Part shown: one piece after another, positions 4,330 through 45,368 of the stretch | Layout of the letters: the number at the start of each line of letters is the position of its first letter | Position numbering within the stretch: position 1 is the first letter of the stretch | The notes under the pieces: generated by a model | The model's database searches: none | What the model was told of the DNA's origin: nothing | Seen by the model: only the letters and a program-made list of their open reading frames with translations | NCBI GenBank assembly: GCA_964499705.1 | Contig: CAZCME010000018.1 | Coordinates: forward strand, 1-64,000 | Direction of reading: 5' to 3' | Length of the DNA: 64,000 nucleotides | Origin: an uncultured bacterium | GTDB taxonomy: Bacteria; UBA8481 | Position numbers and translations under genes: made by a program

Positions 4330-4502
4330 CGGGGCGAGCGATCGGCTAACTTCTTCAATTCCTCCGGCGACGTGATTTTAGGGTTCGTACTGTTTTTTTC
4401 TTTTTCTCGAAGTCGCTCGAAATATCGGTGCAGATCGTTACCGCACTCCTCGAATATTTTCCTGCGAATCTCACGGACTTCCTCTACGACAGGATCATTC
4501 AT
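4326..4502 (-). CDS. Small (58 aa) putative antitoxin partner of the PIN toxin
   Basis: MNDPVVEEVREIRRKIFEECGNDL... resembles the small proteins commonly found downstream of this PIN subfamily. ATGA overlap with the full-length toxin frame; GAGGAG RBS upstream. Confidence 0.65.
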   Translation of the reverse strand: MNDPVVEEVREIRRKIFEECGNDLHRYFERLREKEKNSTNPKITSPEELKKLADRSPR

Positions 4503-4990
4503 GGCGCGGGCCCCTCCTCTTGTGATCCCAACAATTCTTCCGGAGTGCAGATGACGGGCGTCCACGCACCACTTTCCGCATTCAAGCGGTAAAGTTCGCT
4601 CATGATCTACGCATTCGCGATATGTTTGCAATTCCAAGTTACAAGGTAATCGACGCGATAAACACATGCATAGGCAAGATGGGCTTCATCGGTCGCGGCG
4701 CGCGCTGGAATTCCCAATTCCTTGCTGTATCGAACCGCAAGATCTTCAACTTCGACGGTCTTTGACAGCATGAATAGATTCCGGATCAACGCCAATCGTT
4801 GGCTCGCGGCCTCCGGATCGCCTTCGCCACATTCATCCAGCACGGGCTGGGATATAACCAGCTTGTAGTTTGACCTCCGCGTCGCCCACCAGAATCGAGT
4901 GATTTCCTGATGCGCCAGAATGACGATATCGCGAACGGGTCGGGCCACCAGATAGCTGGGAACAGTGGTTTCAAGATAAACTGTCTTCAT
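4499..4990 (-). pseudogene. PIN-domain (VapC-like) toxin interrupted by an in-frame TAG at 4607-4609
   Basis: MKTVYLETTVPSYL...D.AH...DYLVTWNCKHIANA*. The frame continues IMSELYRLNAESGAWTPVICTPEELLGS..., the typical 'ICTPEEL' C-terminus, to TGA at 4499. Confidence 0.8.
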
Positions 4991-10359: not shown

Positions 10360-10432
10360 AGTATGCTGGATGGTGGATCAAGGTTGAAGACATAATTTTT
10401 TTCTTCATCCTTCATCCTTCATCCTTCATACT
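10360..10432. repeat. Imperfect palindrome of TTCATCC heptamers with outward-facing CATACT at both ends
   Basis: Right arm TTCATCC x3 + TTCATACT (~10404-10432); degenerate mirror arm AGTATGCTGGATGGTGGAT from 10360. Confidence 0.7.
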
Positions 10433-10441
10433 TGCCGTTCT

Positions 10442-11833
10442 ATGGCTTCCCGCATACTTCTTGTGGAGGATGACGCCGGGTTCGGAGATTCCCTGGAACG
10501 ATCGCTCCGCATGGACGGTTACGAGGTGATCCGGAGGGCGACGCTGGCGGGGGCCCGCACCGAAACGATGACGGAAATCGATGCGGCGATCCTCGACCTG
10601 GAGTTGCCTGACGGGAGCGGAATCGAGCTCCTGAAGGAATGGCGCTCGGCCCATGCGGATTTACCCGTCATCTTCCTGACCGGCACCCCCACGCTGGAAT
10701 CCGCCGTGGAGGCGCTTCGAGGCCGAGCCTTCGATTTTCTCCGCAAACCCATCTCACGCGACGCGCTCGGCGCCGTTCTGCAGCGCGCCATCGAATCGTC
10801 CCGGCTCCGGCGGGAAGTCGTCCGGCTCCGCGATGCGCTCGGCGCGGAAACTCACCCGCACGGAATCGTGGGCTGCTCCCAGGCCACCCGCACGCTCCAA
10901 TCGCGCATCTCCGCCGTGGCGGCGGCTCCGACGACCGTCCTGATCCAGGGCGAAACCGGCACCGGCAAGGAGCTCGTCGCTCAGGCGCTGCATCTCACTT
11001 CCGGCCGCAAGGGGCCTTTCGTCGCGATCAATTGCGCGGCGCTTCCGGAGATGCTTCTCGAAGCCGAGCTCTTCGGCCACCGGCGAGGAGCCTTCACCGG
11101 AGCCACATCCGACCGCCGCGGGCTCGTCGCCGAAGCCGATGGAGGCACGCTCTTTCTGGACGAGGTCGGAGAACTTCCGCTGCCGCTGCAGGCCAAGCTG
11201 CTGCGGCTCGTGCAGAACCGGGAATACCGCCCGCTCGGCGAGAACCGGGCCCGGCAGTCGGACATCCGGATCATCGCGGCGACCAACCGGGATCTCCGCA
11301 ACGAGCTCGGATCGCACGGAAAATTCCGCGACGACTTGTACTGGAGGCTGGCGGTGGTGACGTTCGAGATCCTGCCGCTCCGCGATCGCCGCGAAGATAT
11401 CGGCGATCTCACCCTCCATTTCATCGCCCGGCATTCCGCTAGACTGGGGAAAACGGTCCGCGGCCTGAGCCGCGACGCGCTGGCCGCGCTCGAAGCGCAC
11501 GATTGGCCCGGCAACGTCCGGGAGCTCGAAAACGTAATCGAGCGCGCCGTTCTCCTGGGAGCCGGCGAACAGCTCGGCGCCGACGATCTCAGCATTCAGC
11601 AGTCGCGCGCGGCGAAGGCGCGACTGGATTCCGATACCCCTGAAATTGCGTTCGACGCTTCGACGCTCGATGACGGAGTGGACGCATTCGAGCGAAACAC
11701 GATCATCAGGCTCCTGCAGGAACATAACGGAAGCGTGGCCCGGGCCGCGCGAGCCGCGGGCCGGAACCGGACCGCGTTCTATGCCATGATGAAACGGCTC
11801 GGCATTTCGAAAGAGGCCGTCTCCGCCGACTGA
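10442..11833 (+). CDS. Sigma-54-dependent response regulator (NtrC family: REC-AAA+-Fis HTH)
   Basis: REC (ILLVEDD, ILDLELPD), GETGTGKE, ELFGH..GAFTGA, LFLDEV, WPGNVREL, C-terminal HTH. Confidence 0.95.
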   Translation: MASRILLVEDDAGFGDSLERSLRMDGYEVIRRATLAGARTETMTEIDAAILDLELPDGSGIELLKEWRSAHADLPVIFLTGTPTLESAVEALRGRAFDFLRKPISRDALGAVLQRAIESSRLRREVVRLRDALGAETHPHGIVGCSQATRTLQSRISAVAAAPTTVLIQGETGTGKELVAQALHLTSGRKGPFVAINCAALPEMLLEAELFGHRRGAFTGATSDRRGLVAEADGGTLFLDEVGELPLPLQAKLLRLVQNREYRPLGENRARQSDIRIIAATNRDLRNELGSHGKFRDDLYWRLAVVTFEILPLRDRREDIGDLTLHFIARHSARLGKTVRGLSRDALAALEAHDWPGNVRELENVIERAVLLGAGEQLGADDLSIQQSRAAKARLDSDTPEIAFDASTLDDGVDAFERNTIIRLLQEHNGSVARAARAAGRNRTAFYAMMKRLGISKEAVSAD

Positions 11834-11998: not shown

Positions 11999-13138
11999 AT
12001 GAACGAGACACCGGCCGGGGAATGCGATGCGAATGCGATCAGGTCCAAGGAGGAACCGCTCCGGATTCTCGTCGTCGACGATGACGATGGATTTCTCCAG
12101 GCGATGAAGCGGCTCTTCCATTCCAGCGGATACAACACGCACATCGCGCGCGACGGGATCGAAGCCATCGAGATGGCGCGCAAGAACACGTACGATGTCG
12201 TCTGCCTCGACCTCTGGATGCCGGGCCGCAACGGAATGGAGACGCTCCAGTCGCTGCGGGCCATCCATCAGGATCTCCCCGTCATCATGGTGTCCGCCAT
12301 GGGCACGGCCTGCACGCAGGAAGCCTGCGCGAAGATGGGGAGCTTCCGATACCTGCAGAAGCCGTTCGGATCCGGCGAAATCCTCAGGACGATCGAGGAA
12401 GCGGCGCGGCTGGCGGAGGACAAGCTCGACTCGGAAGCGCGCGGCGCGAACCGCGGAGTGATACTCCTGGCCGACGACCACGACACATTCCGCGCGACCC
12501 TGGGGCGACGACTGCGCGGAGAAGGTTTCATCGTGGATGAAGCCTCCACCGGTACCGGCGCCGTGGCAGCCTGGCGGAAACGCCACTACGATCTCGGGCT
12601 GCTGGACATGCACATGCCGCAGGGTTCCGGAACGGAAGCGGCGAAAACGATCCACGAGTTCGACCCGACCGCGGTGCTGGCCTTCATGACCGGCGAAGCG
12701 ACTCAGAATGAGATCGACTCCAGCATCCATCACGCCATCGGCATCTGCCTTTCCAAGCCTCTCTCTTTCGAAAAGATCGCGCAGAAAGTAACGTTTCTCA
12801 TCGATGTCGGCCGTCGAACGCGCATGAGGCGCGTCTCGTTCGACAATTACGAAAGCCTCTCCGCCCTGTCAAAAGGCCTGCATCAATTGAAACATTCCTA
12901 TCGGAAATTCCATCGGACGGGACGCGACAAGCTGATGGCCTTCGTCGTCGTGGCCTCGACGCTCCTGTCGCTCCCCTTTCTCCAGGCGATCGATTCCATC
13001 CAGCGCGCCAACCTGGATCGCAGCTTCGGCAACCAGAAGCCGGCTCACACGACACTGGCCGAAATGGTGAGGGATCGACTGTCCGACGGGCAGGGAGAGA
13101 GCATGGAGGAGAAGCTGCTGAAGCTGGCGCAGGAATAG
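11999..13138 (+). CDS. Tandem receiver-domain (REC-REC) protein with a C-terminal hydrophobic segment
   Basis: REC1 (ILVVDDD, CLDLWMPG, QKPF), REC2 (ILLADDH, LLDMHMPQ, SKPL), TM-like LMAFVVVASTLLSLPFL. AAGGAGG RBS before ATG 11999. Confidence 0.85.
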   Translation: MNETPAGECDANAIRSKEEPLRILVVDDDDGFLQAMKRLFHSSGYNTHIARDGIEAIEMARKNTYDVVCLDLWMPGRNGMETLQSLRAIHQDLPVIMVSAMGTACTQEACAKMGSFRYLQKPFGSGEILRTIEEAARLAEDKLDSEARGANRGVILLADDHDTFRATLGRRLRGEGFIVDEASTGTGAVAAWRKRHYDLGLLDMHMPQGSGTEAAKTIHEFDPTAVLAFMTGEATQNEIDSSIHHAIGICLSKPLSFEKIAQKVTFLIDVGRRTRMRRVSFDNYESLSALSKGLHQLKHSYRKFHRTGRDKLMAFVVVASTLLSLPFLQAIDSIQRANLDRSFGNQKPAHTTLAEMVRDRLSDGQGESMEEKLLKLAQE

Positions 13139-13243
13139 GGGACATTCTCCAACATTCCAACATTGGCGATGTTGGAGTTATGTCGTCGGATTTGTAAGAC
13201 TATTATTTTGAATGTTGGAATGTTGGAGAATGTCCCCTATTCC
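13132..13243. repeat. Perfect 33-bp inverted repeat (46-nt spacer) between convergent genes; MITE-like, likely bidirectional terminator
   Basis: GGAATAGGGGACATTCTCCAACATTCCAACATT (13132-13164) and its exact reverse complement (13211-13243). Confidence 0.9.
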
Positions 13244-14184
13244 AAAAAGAGAGAACTCACGGATTCGCTGTGGTGGATGCGGCGGATGGCTTCGCCGAGG
13301 AGCTTGGCGACCGAGAGTTGCTTGATCTTCGCGGGAGCTTTCTCCGTGAGAGGAATCGTGTTCGTGACGATGAGTTCCTCCAGAATGGAATTCTCGATCC
13401 GGTCGAGCGCGGGGCCGGAGAGAACGGCGTGCGTCGCGACGGCGCGGACGGTGCGGGCGCCGGCCTGCTTGATGGCGTTGGCGACGAGCATGAGGGTTCC
13501 GGCCGTGTCGATCATGTCGTCGACGATGATGGCGTCGCGGTCGGTGACATCGCCAATGACGTGGTGGATTTCAGCGACGTTCGGCTGAGGACGGCGCTTG
13601 TCGACGATCGCAAGCGGAAGCCCCTTCAAACGCCGCGCGAAACCGCGGGCGCGCTCGACGGCGCCGGCGTCGGGCGAGACGACCACGGCGTCGGGACCGG
13701 CCAGGCCCATCAGGGCTTCGATGAGCATCGGCGCGGCGTAGAGATGATCGACGGGAATGTCGAAGAAGCCCTGGATCTGATCGGCGTGGAGATCCATCGT
13801 CAGGACGCGATCCGCTCCGGCGGCCGTGATGAGATTGGCCACGAGCTTGGCGGTGATCGGAACGCGCGGCCGATCCTTGCGATCCTGGCGAGCGTATCCG
13901 AAATACGGAATGACCGCCGTGATCCGCTTGGCGGATGCGCGTCGCGCGGCATCGATGAGGACGAGGAGTTCCATCAGGTTCTGGTTGACTGGAGAGCAGG
14001 TCGACTGGATGACGAAGCAATCGACGCCGCGGATGTTCTCCTCGATCCGTACCTGGATCTCCCCGTCTGAAAACGCGCCGACCTTGACGCGCCCCAGCTC
14101 CAGCCCGAGAAAATCGGCGATCTCCCCGGCGAGCACCGGATTGGAATTGCCGGTGAGAAGTTTTATGTGATCGGCGGGCTGCAC
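13237..14184 (-). CDS. prs: Ribose-phosphate pyrophosphokinase
   Basis: Motifs [46 protein letters not shown]. Confidence 0.97.
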
Positions 14185-14193
14185 CGGAGAAGT

Positions 14194-14952
14194 CTAAACT
14201 TCGCTCCCGCGTCTGACAAGATACCTTTCCACAACCCCCAGCTCATCCGGAGTATTGACGCCCAGCATCTCGCCGGGATCCCCTGCGATGACTCCCGCGA
14301 CCCTGCCGTCATGCAAAGCGCAATCGCGGACGACATCCGTCAGGTAATATTCCTGCTGCGCGTTATCGCTTTTCAGGGACGATAGGCCCCGCAGGAGATC
14401 CGCGCGGCGAAAAACATAGGTCCCGCTGTTGACTTCGTTCACGGCGAGTTCCTCCGGGGCGCAGTCGCGCGCCTCGACGATGCGTTCCACACAGGAGGAA
14501 TCGGTCTTCGAGCGAATGATGCGGCCGTAAGCGCCCGCATCATCGAGCACCATCGAGAGCACGGCCGCGGCGGCGTCATCCCTGCGGCGCGCTTCAGCGA
14601 GATTACGGAGCGTTGCAGCCGAGATGCACGGGACATCACCGCAGAGAACAAGGACTTCGTCGGCGTCCGAGAGGAGCGGTGCGGCCTGCTGCGCGGCGTG
14701 ACCGGTTCCGAGGCGTTCCCGCTGAATGACGGTCTCGAATCCCCGGAGGTGCTCCGCTTTTTCCGCGTCGGTCATCTCGGGACCGACTACCGCGATGAAC
14801 TTCGACGCGCCCGCGCCCCGGGCCGCATCGGCGACCCAGCGGATGAGAGGCTTGCCCGCGGCCTGGTGGAGCACTTTCGGCAGGGCCGACTTCATGCGCT
14901 TGCCGAGCCCGGCGGCGAGAATCACGGCAAAAAGCTTCGCGTCGCGCGCCAT
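14194..14952 (-). CDS. Sugar-phosphate nucleotidyltransferase, GlmU N-terminal (uridylyltransferase) domain only
   Basis: Motifs ILAAG.GKRMKS..PKVLH, LGTGHA, GDVP, YGRI, EVNSG.Y, EYYLTD, GVNT. Ends at 252 aa without the acetyltransferase beta-helix; sits in the glmU-prs position. Confidence 0.88.
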   Translation of the reverse strand: MARDAKLFAVILAAGLGKRMKSALPKVLHQAAGKPLIRWVADAARGAGASKFIAVVGPEMTDAEKAEHLRGFETVIQRERLGTGHAAQQAAPLLSDADEVLVLCGDVPCISAATLRNLAEARRRDDAAAAVLSMVLDDAGAYGRIIRSKTDSSCVERIVEARDCAPEELAVNEVNSGTYVFRRADLLRGLSSLKSDNAQQEYYLTDVVRDCALHDGRVAGVIAGDPGEMLGVNTPDELGVVERYLVRRGSEV

Positions 14953-16880
14953 CAGCGTCGCTCCGCCGGATGTCCGGCCGGCACGGCCGAAACCGGTTCG
15001 CGCACCTTCCGCAGCTCGCCCGCGATCCTGTACAGCGATCCCGTCTCGTGAGCGGCATACTCAAGGGCAAGCGCGGCCGTCACGTTCTTCTCTTTTTTCG
15101 CGCAGGCATCCAGGATCCCATGAAGATTTCCCGGCTGCATGCGCGCCAGGATCAGGTAGTGATATTTCCGGATCGCGGGATCCTTCTCGTGCAGCGCGGC
15201 GCCGGCCACCCACTCGGAGGAAATATCCTGGAAATTGTCGATCCGGAGGAGCGACTCCAGGGCGCTTCTCCTCGCGATAGATCCCCGCCCGTGCGAGGCG
15301 AATTCCCAGAGCGGACGGGCGGCGCGCCTGTCGCCCAGCTCACCCAGAGCCCACGCCGCTTTCGCGCGGATCAGTTCCGGCCTGCCATCGTCGAGGTAGC
15401 CGGATATTTTTTCAAAGGCATGCGGCATGGAGATGAAGGCGCTGATCGCGAGCGACGGATCGAGAATCCAGGGATGATCCATCAGCATCCGGAAGATCGG
15501 TTCCACGCGGTCGCAGCGCATCATCGCCATCCGGGCCGCGAAGAAACGGAGCGCGAAGATGCGGCCCTTCATCTCCTTCTTCGACTGGCCGCGGACGTCG
15601 CCCAACTGGCCGTAGGCTTCGCGCGTCAGGCGTTTGACAAGGCCATGCAGTTTCGCCACGTCCCGCATGAATCCCGGGTTCCTGCGGACGAAATCCTCCG
15701 CCCACGTCCTCATGCCGTGTTTCTCGATCCCGAACAATTCCACGTCGGGAATGTTCAGTCGGACGGGATGCAGCCCGCGACCGCCCCGCTCCGGAAGCCA
15801 CTGCGAACGAGGCCCGTTCGAGCGGATCGTGAGGATTCGCTGCGCGAGCCAGTCGGTGGAGACATGGATGCCCAGCCATCGAAGACCGCGAGCATACCAC
15901 TTGAGAAATCGCTCCGGTTCGCGGTGGAACCGTTCGAGAAGCCTGCCGTCGAGCCGATACAGAGAGCCGTACACGCGATCGAAGAGCCGCGCGGCATACT
16001 CGCGCTCGCCGCCCGGCGCGCCGCGGGCCAGAGGATCCCGCGAGTAGCCGATCTCCGATTTGACGGCGTCGTGCAGGCGGAGGCTGAAGCGCGAGGCCAG
16101 AATCCTGGAGAGGCTGTGATGCGCGCGGCGGGCGGCGGCGCTTGTTTTCGCGAAGAAGAACATGTCGTCCACATAGCGGCAGAAACGTCCTCCAGCTTTC
16201 CAGCGATGCTTGACGGTCTCGTCGAGCGGAAAGAGATAGAGGTTTGCAATGAAGCCCGAAACGACGGGACCTGCGGGAATGCCATAACCGGGCGACAGGA
16301 GCGGACAGCGCTGATGATTGAGATCGCGAAAGAAATCGTGGATCGGGTCGCGAGGGAGAATGCGAGCGAGCGTCGCGTCGAGCTTTCGGAGCGGAATCTC
16401 GGGATAGAAATTCTTCACATCGGTGCGGAGGTTCCACGGCGAGCGTCGCGCGGCGCGGCCGCACGCGCGGGAGAAGGAGTCCCAGGCACGATCCCATGGG
16501 ATGAAGAAGCGGTCCGATCCGCGCGCCTTGTCCAACCGGTTCCCGAACGAGACGGCGCCGCCGGCGTCCATGGCGCGCTCCAGGCGCGGCGCCAGCGCCA
16601 GCGCCGCGGCGACCGTCGCCACTTCATCCGCGAACGTGCGATAGGCGTATTTTCGCGACGACTTGATGTCCTTCGGGATGTAATACCCCGTCAGCTGGTC
16701 GAAGCGATATCCTTCCAGCATCCGTCGCGAAAGGTCTCCGATATTCCGCTTCAACCGCCACTCGAAGAGCTTGATCTCCACGGTGTCGTAATACGGCTGC
16801 TCCCAGAGCCAGGTCCGGGCTTTCAGGAAAGCCTGGTGAATCGTCGCATGCCGGGCGGCGATATCGATCGTGGAGGACAT
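14952..16880 (-). CDS. Reverse transcriptase with C-terminal HEAT-like repeats (UG/Abi-like)
   Basis: RT motifs YIPK...R, SFGNRL, TDVKNFYPEI, GIPAGPVVSGFIANLYL..LD and RYVDD (16164-16175). C-terminal HEAT-like IRAKAAWALGELGDRRA and ARRSALESL. 642 aa, uninterrupted. Confidence 0.9.
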   Translation of the reverse strand: MSSTIDIAARHATIHQAFLKARTWLWEQPYYDTVEIKLFEWRLKRNIGDLSRRMLEGYRFDQLTGYYIPKDIKSSRKYAYRTFADEVATVAAALALAPRLERAMDAGGAVSFGNRLDKARGSDRFFIPWDRAWDSFSRACGRAARRSPWNLRTDVKNFYPEIPLRKLDATLARILPRDPIHDFFRDLNHQRCPLLSPGYGIPAGPVVSGFIANLYLFPLDETVKHRWKAGGRFCRYVDDMFFFAKTSAAARRAHHSLSRILASRFSLRLHDAVKSEIGYSRDPLARGAPGGEREYAARLFDRVYGSLYRLDGRLLERFHREPERFLKWYARGLRWLGIHVSTDWLAQRILTIRSNGPRSQWLPERGGRGLHPVRLNIPDVELFGIEKHGMRTWAEDFVRRNPGFMRDVAKLHGLVKRLTREAYGQLGDVRGQSKKEMKGRIFALRFFAARMAMMRCDRVEPIFRMLMDHPWILDPSLAISAFISMPHAFEKISGYLDDGRPELIRAKAAWALGELGDRRAARPLWEFASHGRGSIARRSALESLLRIDNFQDISSEWVAGAALHEKDPAIRKYHYLILARMQPGNLHGILDACAKKEKNVTAALALEYAAHETGSLYRIAGELRKVREPVSAVPAGHPAERR

Positions 16881-16889
16881 GATGGGACG

Positions 16890-16953
16890 AGTATGAAGGA
16901 TGAAGTACGAAATGGAAATATTTCTTCTTACTTTATCCTTCCTGCTTCATACT
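16890..16953. repeat. Imperfect palindrome of the TTCATCC/TTCATAC family between the divergent RT and queE genes
   Basis: AGTATGAAG pairs with CTTCATACT; AAGGATGAAGTA pairs imperfectly with TACTTTATCCTT. Confidence 0.7.
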
Positions 16954-16962
16954 TTTCCTTCC

Positions 16963-17646
16963 ATGTTGAGCGTGAAGGAAATCTACAAGTCGATCCAGGG
17001 CGAGACGAGCCGCGCGGGACTGCCGTCGGTCTTCGTCCGCCTTGCCGCCTGCGACCTGCGCTGCTCCTGGTGCGATTCGGAATACGCCTTCACCGGCGGC
17101 GAGATGATGGAGCTCGATGAGGTCGTTTCGAAAGTCCGCGAACTCGACGCGCGCGTCGTGACCATAACGGGCGGCGAACCGCTCCTGCAGGATGACGTCT
17201 TCCCTCTCATATCGCGCCTCGCCGACGACCGGCGCGATGTGCTCGTGGAAACGAGCGGCGCTCATGACATCGCTCCGATCGATCCTCGCGCGACCGTCAT
17301 CATGGATGTGAAGTGTCCGTCCAGCGGCGAGTCGAAGGCGAACAGGGAAGCCAATCTCGCGAACCTGAAATCCACGGATGAAGTGAAATTCGTAATCGCG
17401 TCCCGCGAAGATTATGACTGGGCTGTTCGCGCCGTCCGTGAAAAGAAGCTGGACGAAAAGTGCCATATCCTATTCACGTGGGCCGCGCCGGTCCCGGAAA
17501 GCGCCGAGCTGAAACCATTTCCGGAAGACCATCGGCGGATCGGCTCCGACGAACTGGCGCGCCTCATCCTCTCCGACGGACTGGATGTGCGCTTCCTTCC
17601 CCAGATCCACAAGACCATCTGGGGTGAAACCGCGCGATCGAGATAG
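16963..17646 (+). CDS. queE: 7-carboxy-7-deazaguanine synthase (radical SAM)
   Basis: EIYKSIQGE...G.P.VFVRL..CDLRCSWCD, TGGEPLLQ, ETSG, PQIHK.IW. Confidence 0.9.
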   Translation: MLSVKEIYKSIQGETSRAGLPSVFVRLAACDLRCSWCDSEYAFTGGEMMELDEVVSKVRELDARVVTITGGEPLLQDDVFPLISRLADDRRDVLVETSGAHDIAPIDPRATVIMDVKCPSSGESKANREANLANLKSTDEVKFVIASREDYDWAVRAVREKKLDEKCHILFTWAAPVPESAELKPFPEDHRRIGSDELARLILSDGLDVRFLPQIHKTIWGETARSR

Positions 17647-45294: not shown

Positions 45295-45368
45295 GCGCCC
45301 GTAGCTCAGTTGGATAGAGCAGCAGCCTTCTAAGCTGTTGGTCGCAGGTTCGACTCCTGCCGGGCGCG
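45295..45368 (+). tRNA. tRNA-Arg (anticodon TCT); CCA not encoded
   Basis: Acceptor GCGCCCG/CGGGCGC, D-arm GCTCAGTTGGATAGAGC, anticodon loop CT-TCT-AA, T-loop GTTCGACTC. TATAAT lies upstream. Confidence 0.95.

Follow-up and report, generated by a model that had tools for sequence, protein, structure and literature searches.

What does an intact reverse transcriptase (RT) do at the head of an operon with glmU-like and prs genes? The question is raised by a 64,000-nucleotide stretch of DNA from an uncultured bacterium (GTDB lineage Bacteria; UBA8481; GenBank assembly GCA_964499705.1, contig CAZCME010000018.1, positions 1 to 64,000), hereafter called the window. A first-pass annotation, made from the sequence without database searches, had proposed that this RT may be either a constitutive defence factor or a domesticated polymerase linked to nucleotide status. 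We followed up this proposal computationally. The protein is a Class 1 RT of the UG/Abi type, in which an alphaRep solenoid appears to take the place of the thumb of other RTs. By analogy with characterized enzymes of similar architecture, we consider it an even call that it is a stand-alone polymerase producing single-stranded DNA (ssDNA) without a template, likely as a fixed single-gene anti-phage sentinel.

An intact RT with a helical-repeat C-terminus

The RT gene and its two parts lie at the following positions.

14952..16880, (-) strand: RT gene P0001, 642 aa, ATG start (list of open reading frames, Pfam and PADLOC)
16011..16880, (-) strand: RT palm and fingers, residues ~1-290 (invariant columns and structural matches)
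15048..16010, (-) strand: C-terminal helical/alphaRep (HEAT-like) solenoid, residues ~291-611, plus a low-confidence tail at residues 619-642

The translation was free of stops across all 642 aa, and the longer antisense open reading frame (ORF) at 14970..17120 on the (+) strand (716 aa) is a shadow of the RT frame. The motifs on which the first-pass annotation had based its call of an intact 642-aa RT (TDVKNFY, YVDD, SFGNRL and GIPAGP) were all confirmed in the translation: SFGNRL lies at residues 111-116, TDVKNFYPE at 153-161, GIPAGP at 200-205 and RYVDD at 235-239, and a G-x-P-x-GP..SG..AN motif spans residues 200-213. Pfam matched RVT_1 at residues 142-270 (E 1.9e-10) and HEAT_2 at residues 484-544 (E 1.1e-06). 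Across the family, whose members share 37-81% identity, K70, R76, D154, Y236, D238, D239 and K274 were invariant in 13/13 sequences. The family alignment contained more than 100 invariant columns, all catalytic residues among them, and the RT frame was full-length and free of internal stops in all six carrier genomes.

An AlphaFold2 model built from the 13-row family alignment (pLDDT 79.2, pTM 0.81) showed an RT domain up to about residue 290, followed by an all-helical solenoid at residues 291-611. In a sequence-profile comparison with the PDB, the C-terminus matched designed alphaRep/HEAT chains, with E values down to 1.1e-32. The HEAT-like C-terminus noticed at first pass was therefore recovered by the HEAT_2 match, by alphaRep profiles and in the modelled solenoid. 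Full-chain structural alignments were obtained with AbiK (Z 16.1 over 455 residues), DRT6 (Z 14.9 over 449), AbiA (Z 16.5 over 393) and Abi-P2 (Z 14.7 over 395), scores that are model-based and lie in a middling range that helical repeats alone can yield. For the RT domain alone, the closest folds were the RTs of diversity-generating retroelements (DGRs) and group II introns (Z 22-23 over ~255-290 residues). In the model, the fingers alpha2-alpha3 loop comprises residues 26-32 (WEQPYYD), between helices 11-25 and 33-41, and contains Y30 and Y31, both nearly invariant (at least 90% of rows).

Among the PADLOC models, the RT scored best on UG35 (146.7 bits), followed by UG25 (112.6), UG21 (110.7) and UG19 (94.1). 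Mestre 2022 (PMC9226505) places these four groups in Class 1, with RTs fused to alphaRep/HEAT-like repeats. Together with the structural alignments, these matches agree with the UG/Abi type that the first-pass annotation had assigned.

A small lineage beside UG25 and UG35

Despite their rank, the PADLOC matches did not amount to membership scores: UG35 members reached 381-1348 bits and UG25 members 509-1167 bits on their own models, versus 131-149 bits for the RT family. The match of the RT to the RT_UG35 profile covered positions 329-887 of 938, and that to the UG25 profile started at position 270 of 870.

The family itself is small. A word-indexed search of 5.8 billion proteins returned 14 matches, of which 13 were the RT family including the query (38-80% identity, 557-642 aa) and the fourteenth was an unrelated HEAT-repeat protein. 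When 1.84 billion cluster representatives were searched with a profile, two matches reached family level (1112 and 904 bits) and the next one scored 262 bits. PADLOC classification covered 78 of the 150 matches listed, the remaining 72 including about 20 with HEAT repeats only; nearly all of the classified RT matches were of the UG25 or UG35 type, and most carried 270-350 extra N-terminal residues.

A tree was built from 65 rows (14 of the RT family, 41 of the UG25/UG35 type and 10 others) with IQ-TREE in quick mode, with SH-aLRT as the only support measure and without the Mestre 2022 reference set. Ten rows from the window's lineage (clade A) and four from Lindowbacteria (clade B) formed one clade (SH-aLRT 99), which was sister to UG25 plus UG35 (SH-aLRT 98) and lay outside the clades of both groups. 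Judged from this tree, the RT family is its own small lineage without a name, sister to UG25 and UG35. The first-pass annotation had proposed a phylogeny and a structure prediction as checks; both have now been run, giving this placement and the RT-plus-solenoid model described above. In the literature library searched, the term UG35 together with RT terms was found only in Mestre 2022 (PMC9226505) among relevant papers, and its reference sequences might already bin members of the family. For Lindowbacteria and reverse transcriptase, one unrelated paper with both terms was found.

A metagenome scan for relatives returned only distant RTs plus two further sequences. One (L040:16-951) is a partial C-terminal relative with 34% identity over residues 297-616, which might mark a third sublineage. 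The other (L041:1149-4127) encodes a 992-aa protein with an N-terminal extension and 26% identity to the RT.

Probable insertion into an older gene neighbourhood

The RT gene is flanked by the following features.

14194..14952, (-) strand: GlmU-like gene, 252 aa, N-terminal sugar-1-phosphate uridyltransferase half only (ORF and model matches)
13237..14184, (-) strand: prs, ribose-phosphate diphosphokinase, 315 aa, GTG start (ORF, Pfam and NCBIfam-type model)
16900..17646, (+) strand: queE-like radical SAM gene, probable start 16963 (Pfam Radical_SAM; TIGR04349, 252 bits)
16881..16962: AT-rich divergent spacer from the RT ATG to the probable queE ATG; presumed promoter/leader with weak hairpin potential
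13132..13243: 33-bp perfect inverted repeat with a 46-nt loop, 3' of prs; possible operon terminator

At the junction ...CGACGCTGATGGCG..., the TGA stop of the RT and the ATG start of the glmU-like gene have one base in common, and the GTG start of prs follows the TAG stop of the glmU-like gene after nine bases; both spacings were as first described. No terminator-like site was found between the operon genes, and co-transcription of the RT, glmU-like gene and prs is implied from spacing alone. The G+C content in 1-kb windows was 0.607-0.652 in the RT and 0.585-0.656 in the flanks, in line with the earlier impression that the RT resembles its flanks in composition. On the other side, queE probably starts at the ATG at 16963 instead of 16900, because the TIGR04349 match opens at residue 23; the divergent spacer would therefore be ~82 bp, not 19 bp. 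This 5' leader of the RT gave a fold z-score of -2.9, corresponding to a weak hairpin.

To place this arrangement in context, we compared nine genomes: five from the window's phylum (G000, which is the window's genome, to G004) and four from the Lindowbacteria phylum, recorded as Candidatus Lindowbacteria (two), "bacterium" (one) and "uncultured bacterium" (one). The RT occurred in two of the five genomes of the window's phylum, G000 and G003; G003 belongs to another genus, and its RT is 59-60% identical. It was absent at the locus and genome-wide from G001, G002 and G004 (86%, 88% and 94% complete), where the queE-like gene faces the glmU-like/prs pair across 126-150 bp without an RT. GlmU-like orthologues had the same length in G001 to G004. 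A four-protein species tree joined G001 and G002 (100/100) without resolving how G000 and G003 relate to them; to account for the RT pattern in this phylum, a single gain suffices, with or without one loss. As read from these loci, the RT in the window's lineage is an insertion into the old divergent promoter region between queE and glmU-prs, and it heads the glmU-like/prs operon because it was inserted there.

In G003, the RT ATG and the stop of a CxxCxxCC-domain ORF lying upstream overlap (ATGA). Between the RT and the glmU-like gene there is a spacer of ~75-110 bp that contains a 17-bp perfect palindrome (L020:1178-1250), which suggests that glmU-prs is under its own regulated promoter there. 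The palindrome is AT-rich with a 5-nt spacer and is operator-like.

All four Lindowbacteria genomes carry the RT. Their RTs are not near glmU or prs; the glmU-prs pair is present, away from the RT. Instead, each RT follows a gene of the Minf_1886 family (136-170 aa; TIGR04138, 108-111 bits), with RNase HII upstream of the Minf_1886 gene, two genes upstream of the RT, in two of the four loci. The wider neighbours are ordinary and varied. The opposite strand of one of the four loci (L025:2672-6258) carries genes for a UvrD-type helicase and PIN-PhoH, 2-5 kb upstream of the RT.

Several candidate links to neighbouring genes were considered and rejected. Minf_1886 is not an obligatory partner: two unrelated genomes (G059 and G079) have it but no RT, and a search of G000 did not recover it; this search used a 3-row profile without a positive control, so its empty result shows little. 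A link to queE, and thereby to 7-deazaguanine, was dismissed since the queE-glmU adjacency is older than the RT. A glmU/prs link was likewise discarded as a conserved feature, because the RT neighbours vary among the window, G003 and Lindowbacteria. The RT itself is the sole constant part across all lineages, and the glmU/prs linkage looks like a local accident rather than part of a system. The first-pass proposal that the RT is tied to nucleotide-sugar and phosphoribosyl pyrophosphate (PRPP) genes thus did not hold, given the RT-less queE/glmU-prs loci in G001, G002 and G004, the G003 spacer and the location of the RT elsewhere in Lindowbacteria. The same annotation had held that two observations would together speak against it: relatives without the RT at this locus, which were found (G001, G002 and G004), and membership in a characterized clade of defence-associated RTs (DRTs) in ordinary defence islands, which was not.

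Some observations concern the neighbours. The 252-aa GlmU-like protein covered only positions ~3-245 of ~450-position GlmU models and is for this reason assigned as the uridyltransferase half; only this half, with 252-255 aa, was present in all five genomes of the window's phylum. In Lindowbacteria, the glmU-N match and prs are ~700 bp apart (L135-L137), a distance that would accommodate the acetyltransferase half. The 315-aa protein was identified as ribose-phosphate diphosphokinase at 472.7 bits. Pyrimidine-rich short repeats of the CCTTCAT type lie directly upstream of the queE ATG (16921-16965) and of the ATG of a sigma54 activator (10400-10444), the two leaders (on the queE side and before the gene at 10442) being 80% alike, and CTCCTCA repeats occupy the corresponding queE position in G002 (L017 ~4470-4540). 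These repeats may be a shared leader or regulatory motif. The inverted repeat at 13132-13243 had a fold energy of -58.5 kcal/mol (z-score -10.8), and this ~110-nt palindromic element is dispersed over the genome (109 matches, both strands counted); it looks like a miniature inverted-repeat transposable element or repetitive extragenic palindrome (MITE/REP-like).

Selection and divergence

We compared substitution rates between G000 and G003 by the NG86 method. The ratio of non-synonymous to synonymous substitution (dN/dS) was 0.225 for the RT, 0.184 for the glmU-like gene, 0.205 for iPGM and 0.306 for TIM, with dS values of ~0.7-1.7 that are partly saturated. RT identity was 59-60% within the family and 38-39% between phyla, with corresponding values of 74-75% and 54-55% for prs. 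By these ratios, the RT is under purifying selection similar to that on neighbouring genes. Of the combined synteny and dN/dS check suggested at first pass, the selection part therefore came out in favour of a maintained gene, and the queE/RT-glmU-prs arrangement proved not to be conserved.

RT start sites in Lindowbacteria

The Lindowbacteria RTs have no in-frame ATG, GTG or TTG at the N-terminus; at all four loci, the first such codon lies 65-100 codons downstream. Three loci have CTG at the position homologous to the RT start and the fourth has ATA; in each case, two bases of this codon are shared with the Minf_1886 stop. The starts are as follows.

L022:7998, Lindowbacteria RT start
L023:7986, Lindowbacteria RT start
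L024:7995, Lindowbacteria RT start
L025:7998, Lindowbacteria RT start

This configuration suggests termination-reinitiation and a low RT dosage in Lindowbacteria. Because the RT lacks a canonical start codon, the public annotation P0015 (557 aa) is N-terminally truncated. The open RT frame upstream had prompted us to consider a Minf_1886-RT fusion by programmed -1 frameshifting; reinitiation was preferred because the stop/start overlap is common to all four loci and an A-rich run was present in L025 only.

Absence of other RT-system and defence features

Searches for the components of known RT systems were negative. With Rfam, tRNA-Arg at 45295-45368 was the sole match in the window at gathering score, and the 12-20 kb region gave only chance-level matches to microRNA models, with no intron RNA or msr/msd. 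No long direct repeat of the template-repeat/variable-repeat (TR/VR) type was present in 9-23 kb, the longest repeats being 25-45 nt at 60-80% identity. PADLOC gave no specific defence match for any of the 25 ORFs in 1-32 kb and matched three of them through generic domains (sigma54 AAA+ activator, receiver and OmpA/MotB). The RT scored 65.6 bits on the group II intron RT/maturase model TIGR04416 (cut-off 300), 41.2 bits on the retron RT model NF038233 (cut-off 235) and far under the cut-offs of the NCBIfam Drt2-4 models. The Rfam, repeat and PADLOC searches thus uphold the earlier statement that intron RNA, msr/msd, TR/VR, cas, integrase and defence neighbours are absent.

Similar results were obtained beyond the window. 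The RT neighbours in the relatives' genomes were housekeeping genes by Pfam. A search of a phage collection gave no record for the RT family, a plasmid collection gave a single record, a generic RT at 16% coverage, with no family-level match, and the best match in IMG/VR had 27% identity over the RT domain only, again with no family-level match. Protein and genome searches gave no family-level match outside clades A and B. No conserved noncoding RNA was found downstream of the clade B RTs (mean column identity 47%), and the queE-side spacers of G000, G001, G002 and G004 did not align (mean column identity 41%). The RT lineage is chromosomal and appears to be vertically inherited in two candidate phyla.

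Possible function of the RT

As a stand-alone anti-phage polymerase, the RT would use one of its own residues as primer and make ssDNA without a template, by analogy with AbiK, Abi-P2, AbiA and DRT4. Class 1 DRTs are described as catalysing untemplated synthesis (PMC13174585), and AbiK and Abi-P2 prime from Tyr44 and Tyr61, respectively, in the fingers alpha2-alpha3 loop (PMC9508834). Y30 and Y31 in the corresponding loop are candidate priming residues, and we hold protein-primed untemplated synthesis with moderate confidence. Expression of the RT would be low and coupled. With no fixed partner gene, it would act stand-alone, as a single-gene sentinel fixed in both lineages.

Several points weigh against this reading. 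The alpha2-alpha3 loop has only 7 residues in the RT versus 37 in AbiK, and in the model such a short loop may be out of reach of the active site. The RT domain taken alone is nearer to templated RTs (DGR and group II intron) than to Abi polymerases. The tree behind the kinship argument, a quick search with SH-aLRT support only, was rooted on outgroup rows covering less than half of the columns, and UG25 and UG35 themselves are listed in Mestre 2022 (PMC9226505) among groups with an inconclusive defence prediction. A defence role in particular is opposed by the lack of defence neighbours and mobile-element matches, the confinement to clades A and B, and the presence of the RT in 4/4 Lindowbacteria.

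Architecture and kinship favour a single-gene anti-phage function, whereas the restriction to two lineages, the conserved position, the lack of a mobile or defence context and the 4/4 count favour domestication. We regard it as a serious but minority possibility that the polymerase has been domesticated for a cellular task outside defence, such as DNA damage tolerance or repair or some other nucleic-acid transaction; vertical inheritance would then reach back beyond the split of the two phyla. The tree separates clades A and B along the two phyla, RT divergence roughly tracks that of prs, and dN/dS is like that of housekeeping neighbours; in Lindowbacteria, the RT holds a conserved position after the Minf_1886 gene in all four genomes, and RNase HII lies two genes upstream at two loci. 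The G2L4 RT, taken into double-strand-break repair (PMC12337344; 10.1101/2022.03.14.484287), offers a precedent. On the other hand, the loci of G001, G002 and G004 are intact without the RT, and an essential role is made less likely by its absence from three of the five genomes of the window's phylum. Furthermore, no partner or pathway context is conserved across the lineages, the 4/4 count comes from a small sample (nine genomes in all), and the nearest characterized relatives by architecture are defence enzymes. Equally tentative is a domesticated, protein-primed untemplated synthase kept at low dosage by translational coupling, through CTG/ATA reinitiation in Lindowbacteria and through operon embedding in the window's lineage.

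The other explanations appear considerably less probable. Since the RT domain resembles templated RTs over Abi polymerases, templated synthesis retains some probability, and the 5' leader hairpin (z-score -2.9) could be taken as pointing to an RT that copies an unrecognized RNA, such as its own leader or mRNA, as Class 2 DRTs do. However, there was no Rfam match, the spacer is only ~82 bp, nothing lies between the RT and glmU, the regions downstream of clade B RTs are unconserved (47% mean column identity), and the alphaRep architecture is that of Class 1, described as untemplated (PMC13174585); we therefore consider a templated RT unlikely. Functional coupling to the GlmU-like protein and Prs, by which the RT would sense or use nucleotide or PRPP status, would fit the 1-nt stop/start overlap and the tight operon without a terminator-like site between its genes. 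It is rather more doubtful still, because the glmU-prs pair is older, lacks the RT in G001, G002 and G004 and lies away from it in Lindowbacteria, where no clade B RT is near glmU or prs, and because in G003 the palindrome spacer of ~75-110 bp intervenes and the RT start overlaps an upstream ORF instead. If, finally, the gene were left over from an old insertion and decaying or neutral, this would explain why three of the five genomes of the window's phylum lack the RT, but the open full-length frames in all six carriers, the more than 100 invariant columns and the dN/dS of 0.225 make this very improbable.

The nearest named groups, UG25 and UG35, are still uncharacterized. The RT family differs in its ecology: a minimal RT plus alphaRep protein in two deep uncultured lineages, in ordinary operons and evolving at a housekeeping-like pace. 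Should it prove to be a defence gene, the RT would add a new and compact system consisting of one gene, and would represent the UG25/UG35 core in a naturally minimal form. Should its role lie outside defence, bacterial RT domestication, so far represented by G2L4, would extend to untemplated protein-primed polymerases, and Class 1 would gain its first member without a defence function. A clean natural experiment on function is available in sister genomes that differ in the presence of the RT at this locus.

Comparison with known systems

UG35 is the closest described group by score, its PADLOC model (146.7 bits, over RT and alphaRep) ranking first, and it belongs to the sister clade. According to PMC9226505, RTs of the UG25 and UG35 groups have a methylase at the N-terminus and are associated with a DUF1848 gene (UG25) or a UvrD-like helicase (UG35). 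Unlike UG35, the RT starts at profile position 329 of 938 and thus lacks the N-terminal domain (the reported methylase), and no UvrD-like partner was present among the window neighbours; one of the four Lindowbacteria loci has a UvrD gene 3 kb off on the other strand. UG25 is similar in providing the second-best model (112.6 bits), and the nearest non-family proteins, P0019-P0021 (253-262 bits on the family profile), score best on UG25. It differs in that the RT has no N-terminal extension and no DUF1848-type gene among the Pfam-scanned neighbours. Pfam detected no methylase in six extended proteins of the UG25/UG35 type at E <= 0.001 (0/6), so the methylase label comes from the paper only, and what our comparison addresses is the absence of the extension, not its nature.

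With AbiK, Abi-P2 and AbiA, the RT appears to share a single-gene, bilobal architecture of RT palm/fingers plus helical solenoid (model-based Z 14.7-16.5), and conserved tyrosines lie in its modelled fingers alpha2-alpha3 loop, where AbiK and Abi-P2 prime. In AbiK and Abi-P2, ssDNA is bound between the RT and helical lobes, and assembly into a trimer or hexamer is needed (PMC9508834). The RT differs from these enzymes in its sequence (11-13% identity), its short loop and the lack of a plasmid or prophage context, and it scored only 21.5 bits on the AbiA model (cut-off 250).

DRT4 (UG15) and DRT6 likewise combine an RT and a helical domain in a single polypeptide, with Foldseek/VIA-align matches over ~450-590 columns, and DRT4 produces random ssDNA without a template (PMC12783706). 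Unlike them, the RT has no recognized effector domain and lies outside a defence island; it scored 25.9 bits on NCBIfam Drt4 (cut-off 450) and 44.2 bits on PADLOC Drt6. The G2L4 RT is of a group II-like lineage with a thumb and no alphaRep, and matches the RT domain only (9d4s, Z 21.9, 268 residues). It is nevertheless a free-standing chromosomal bacterial RT outside retroelements, as is the RT described here, and sets a precedent for a cellular role.

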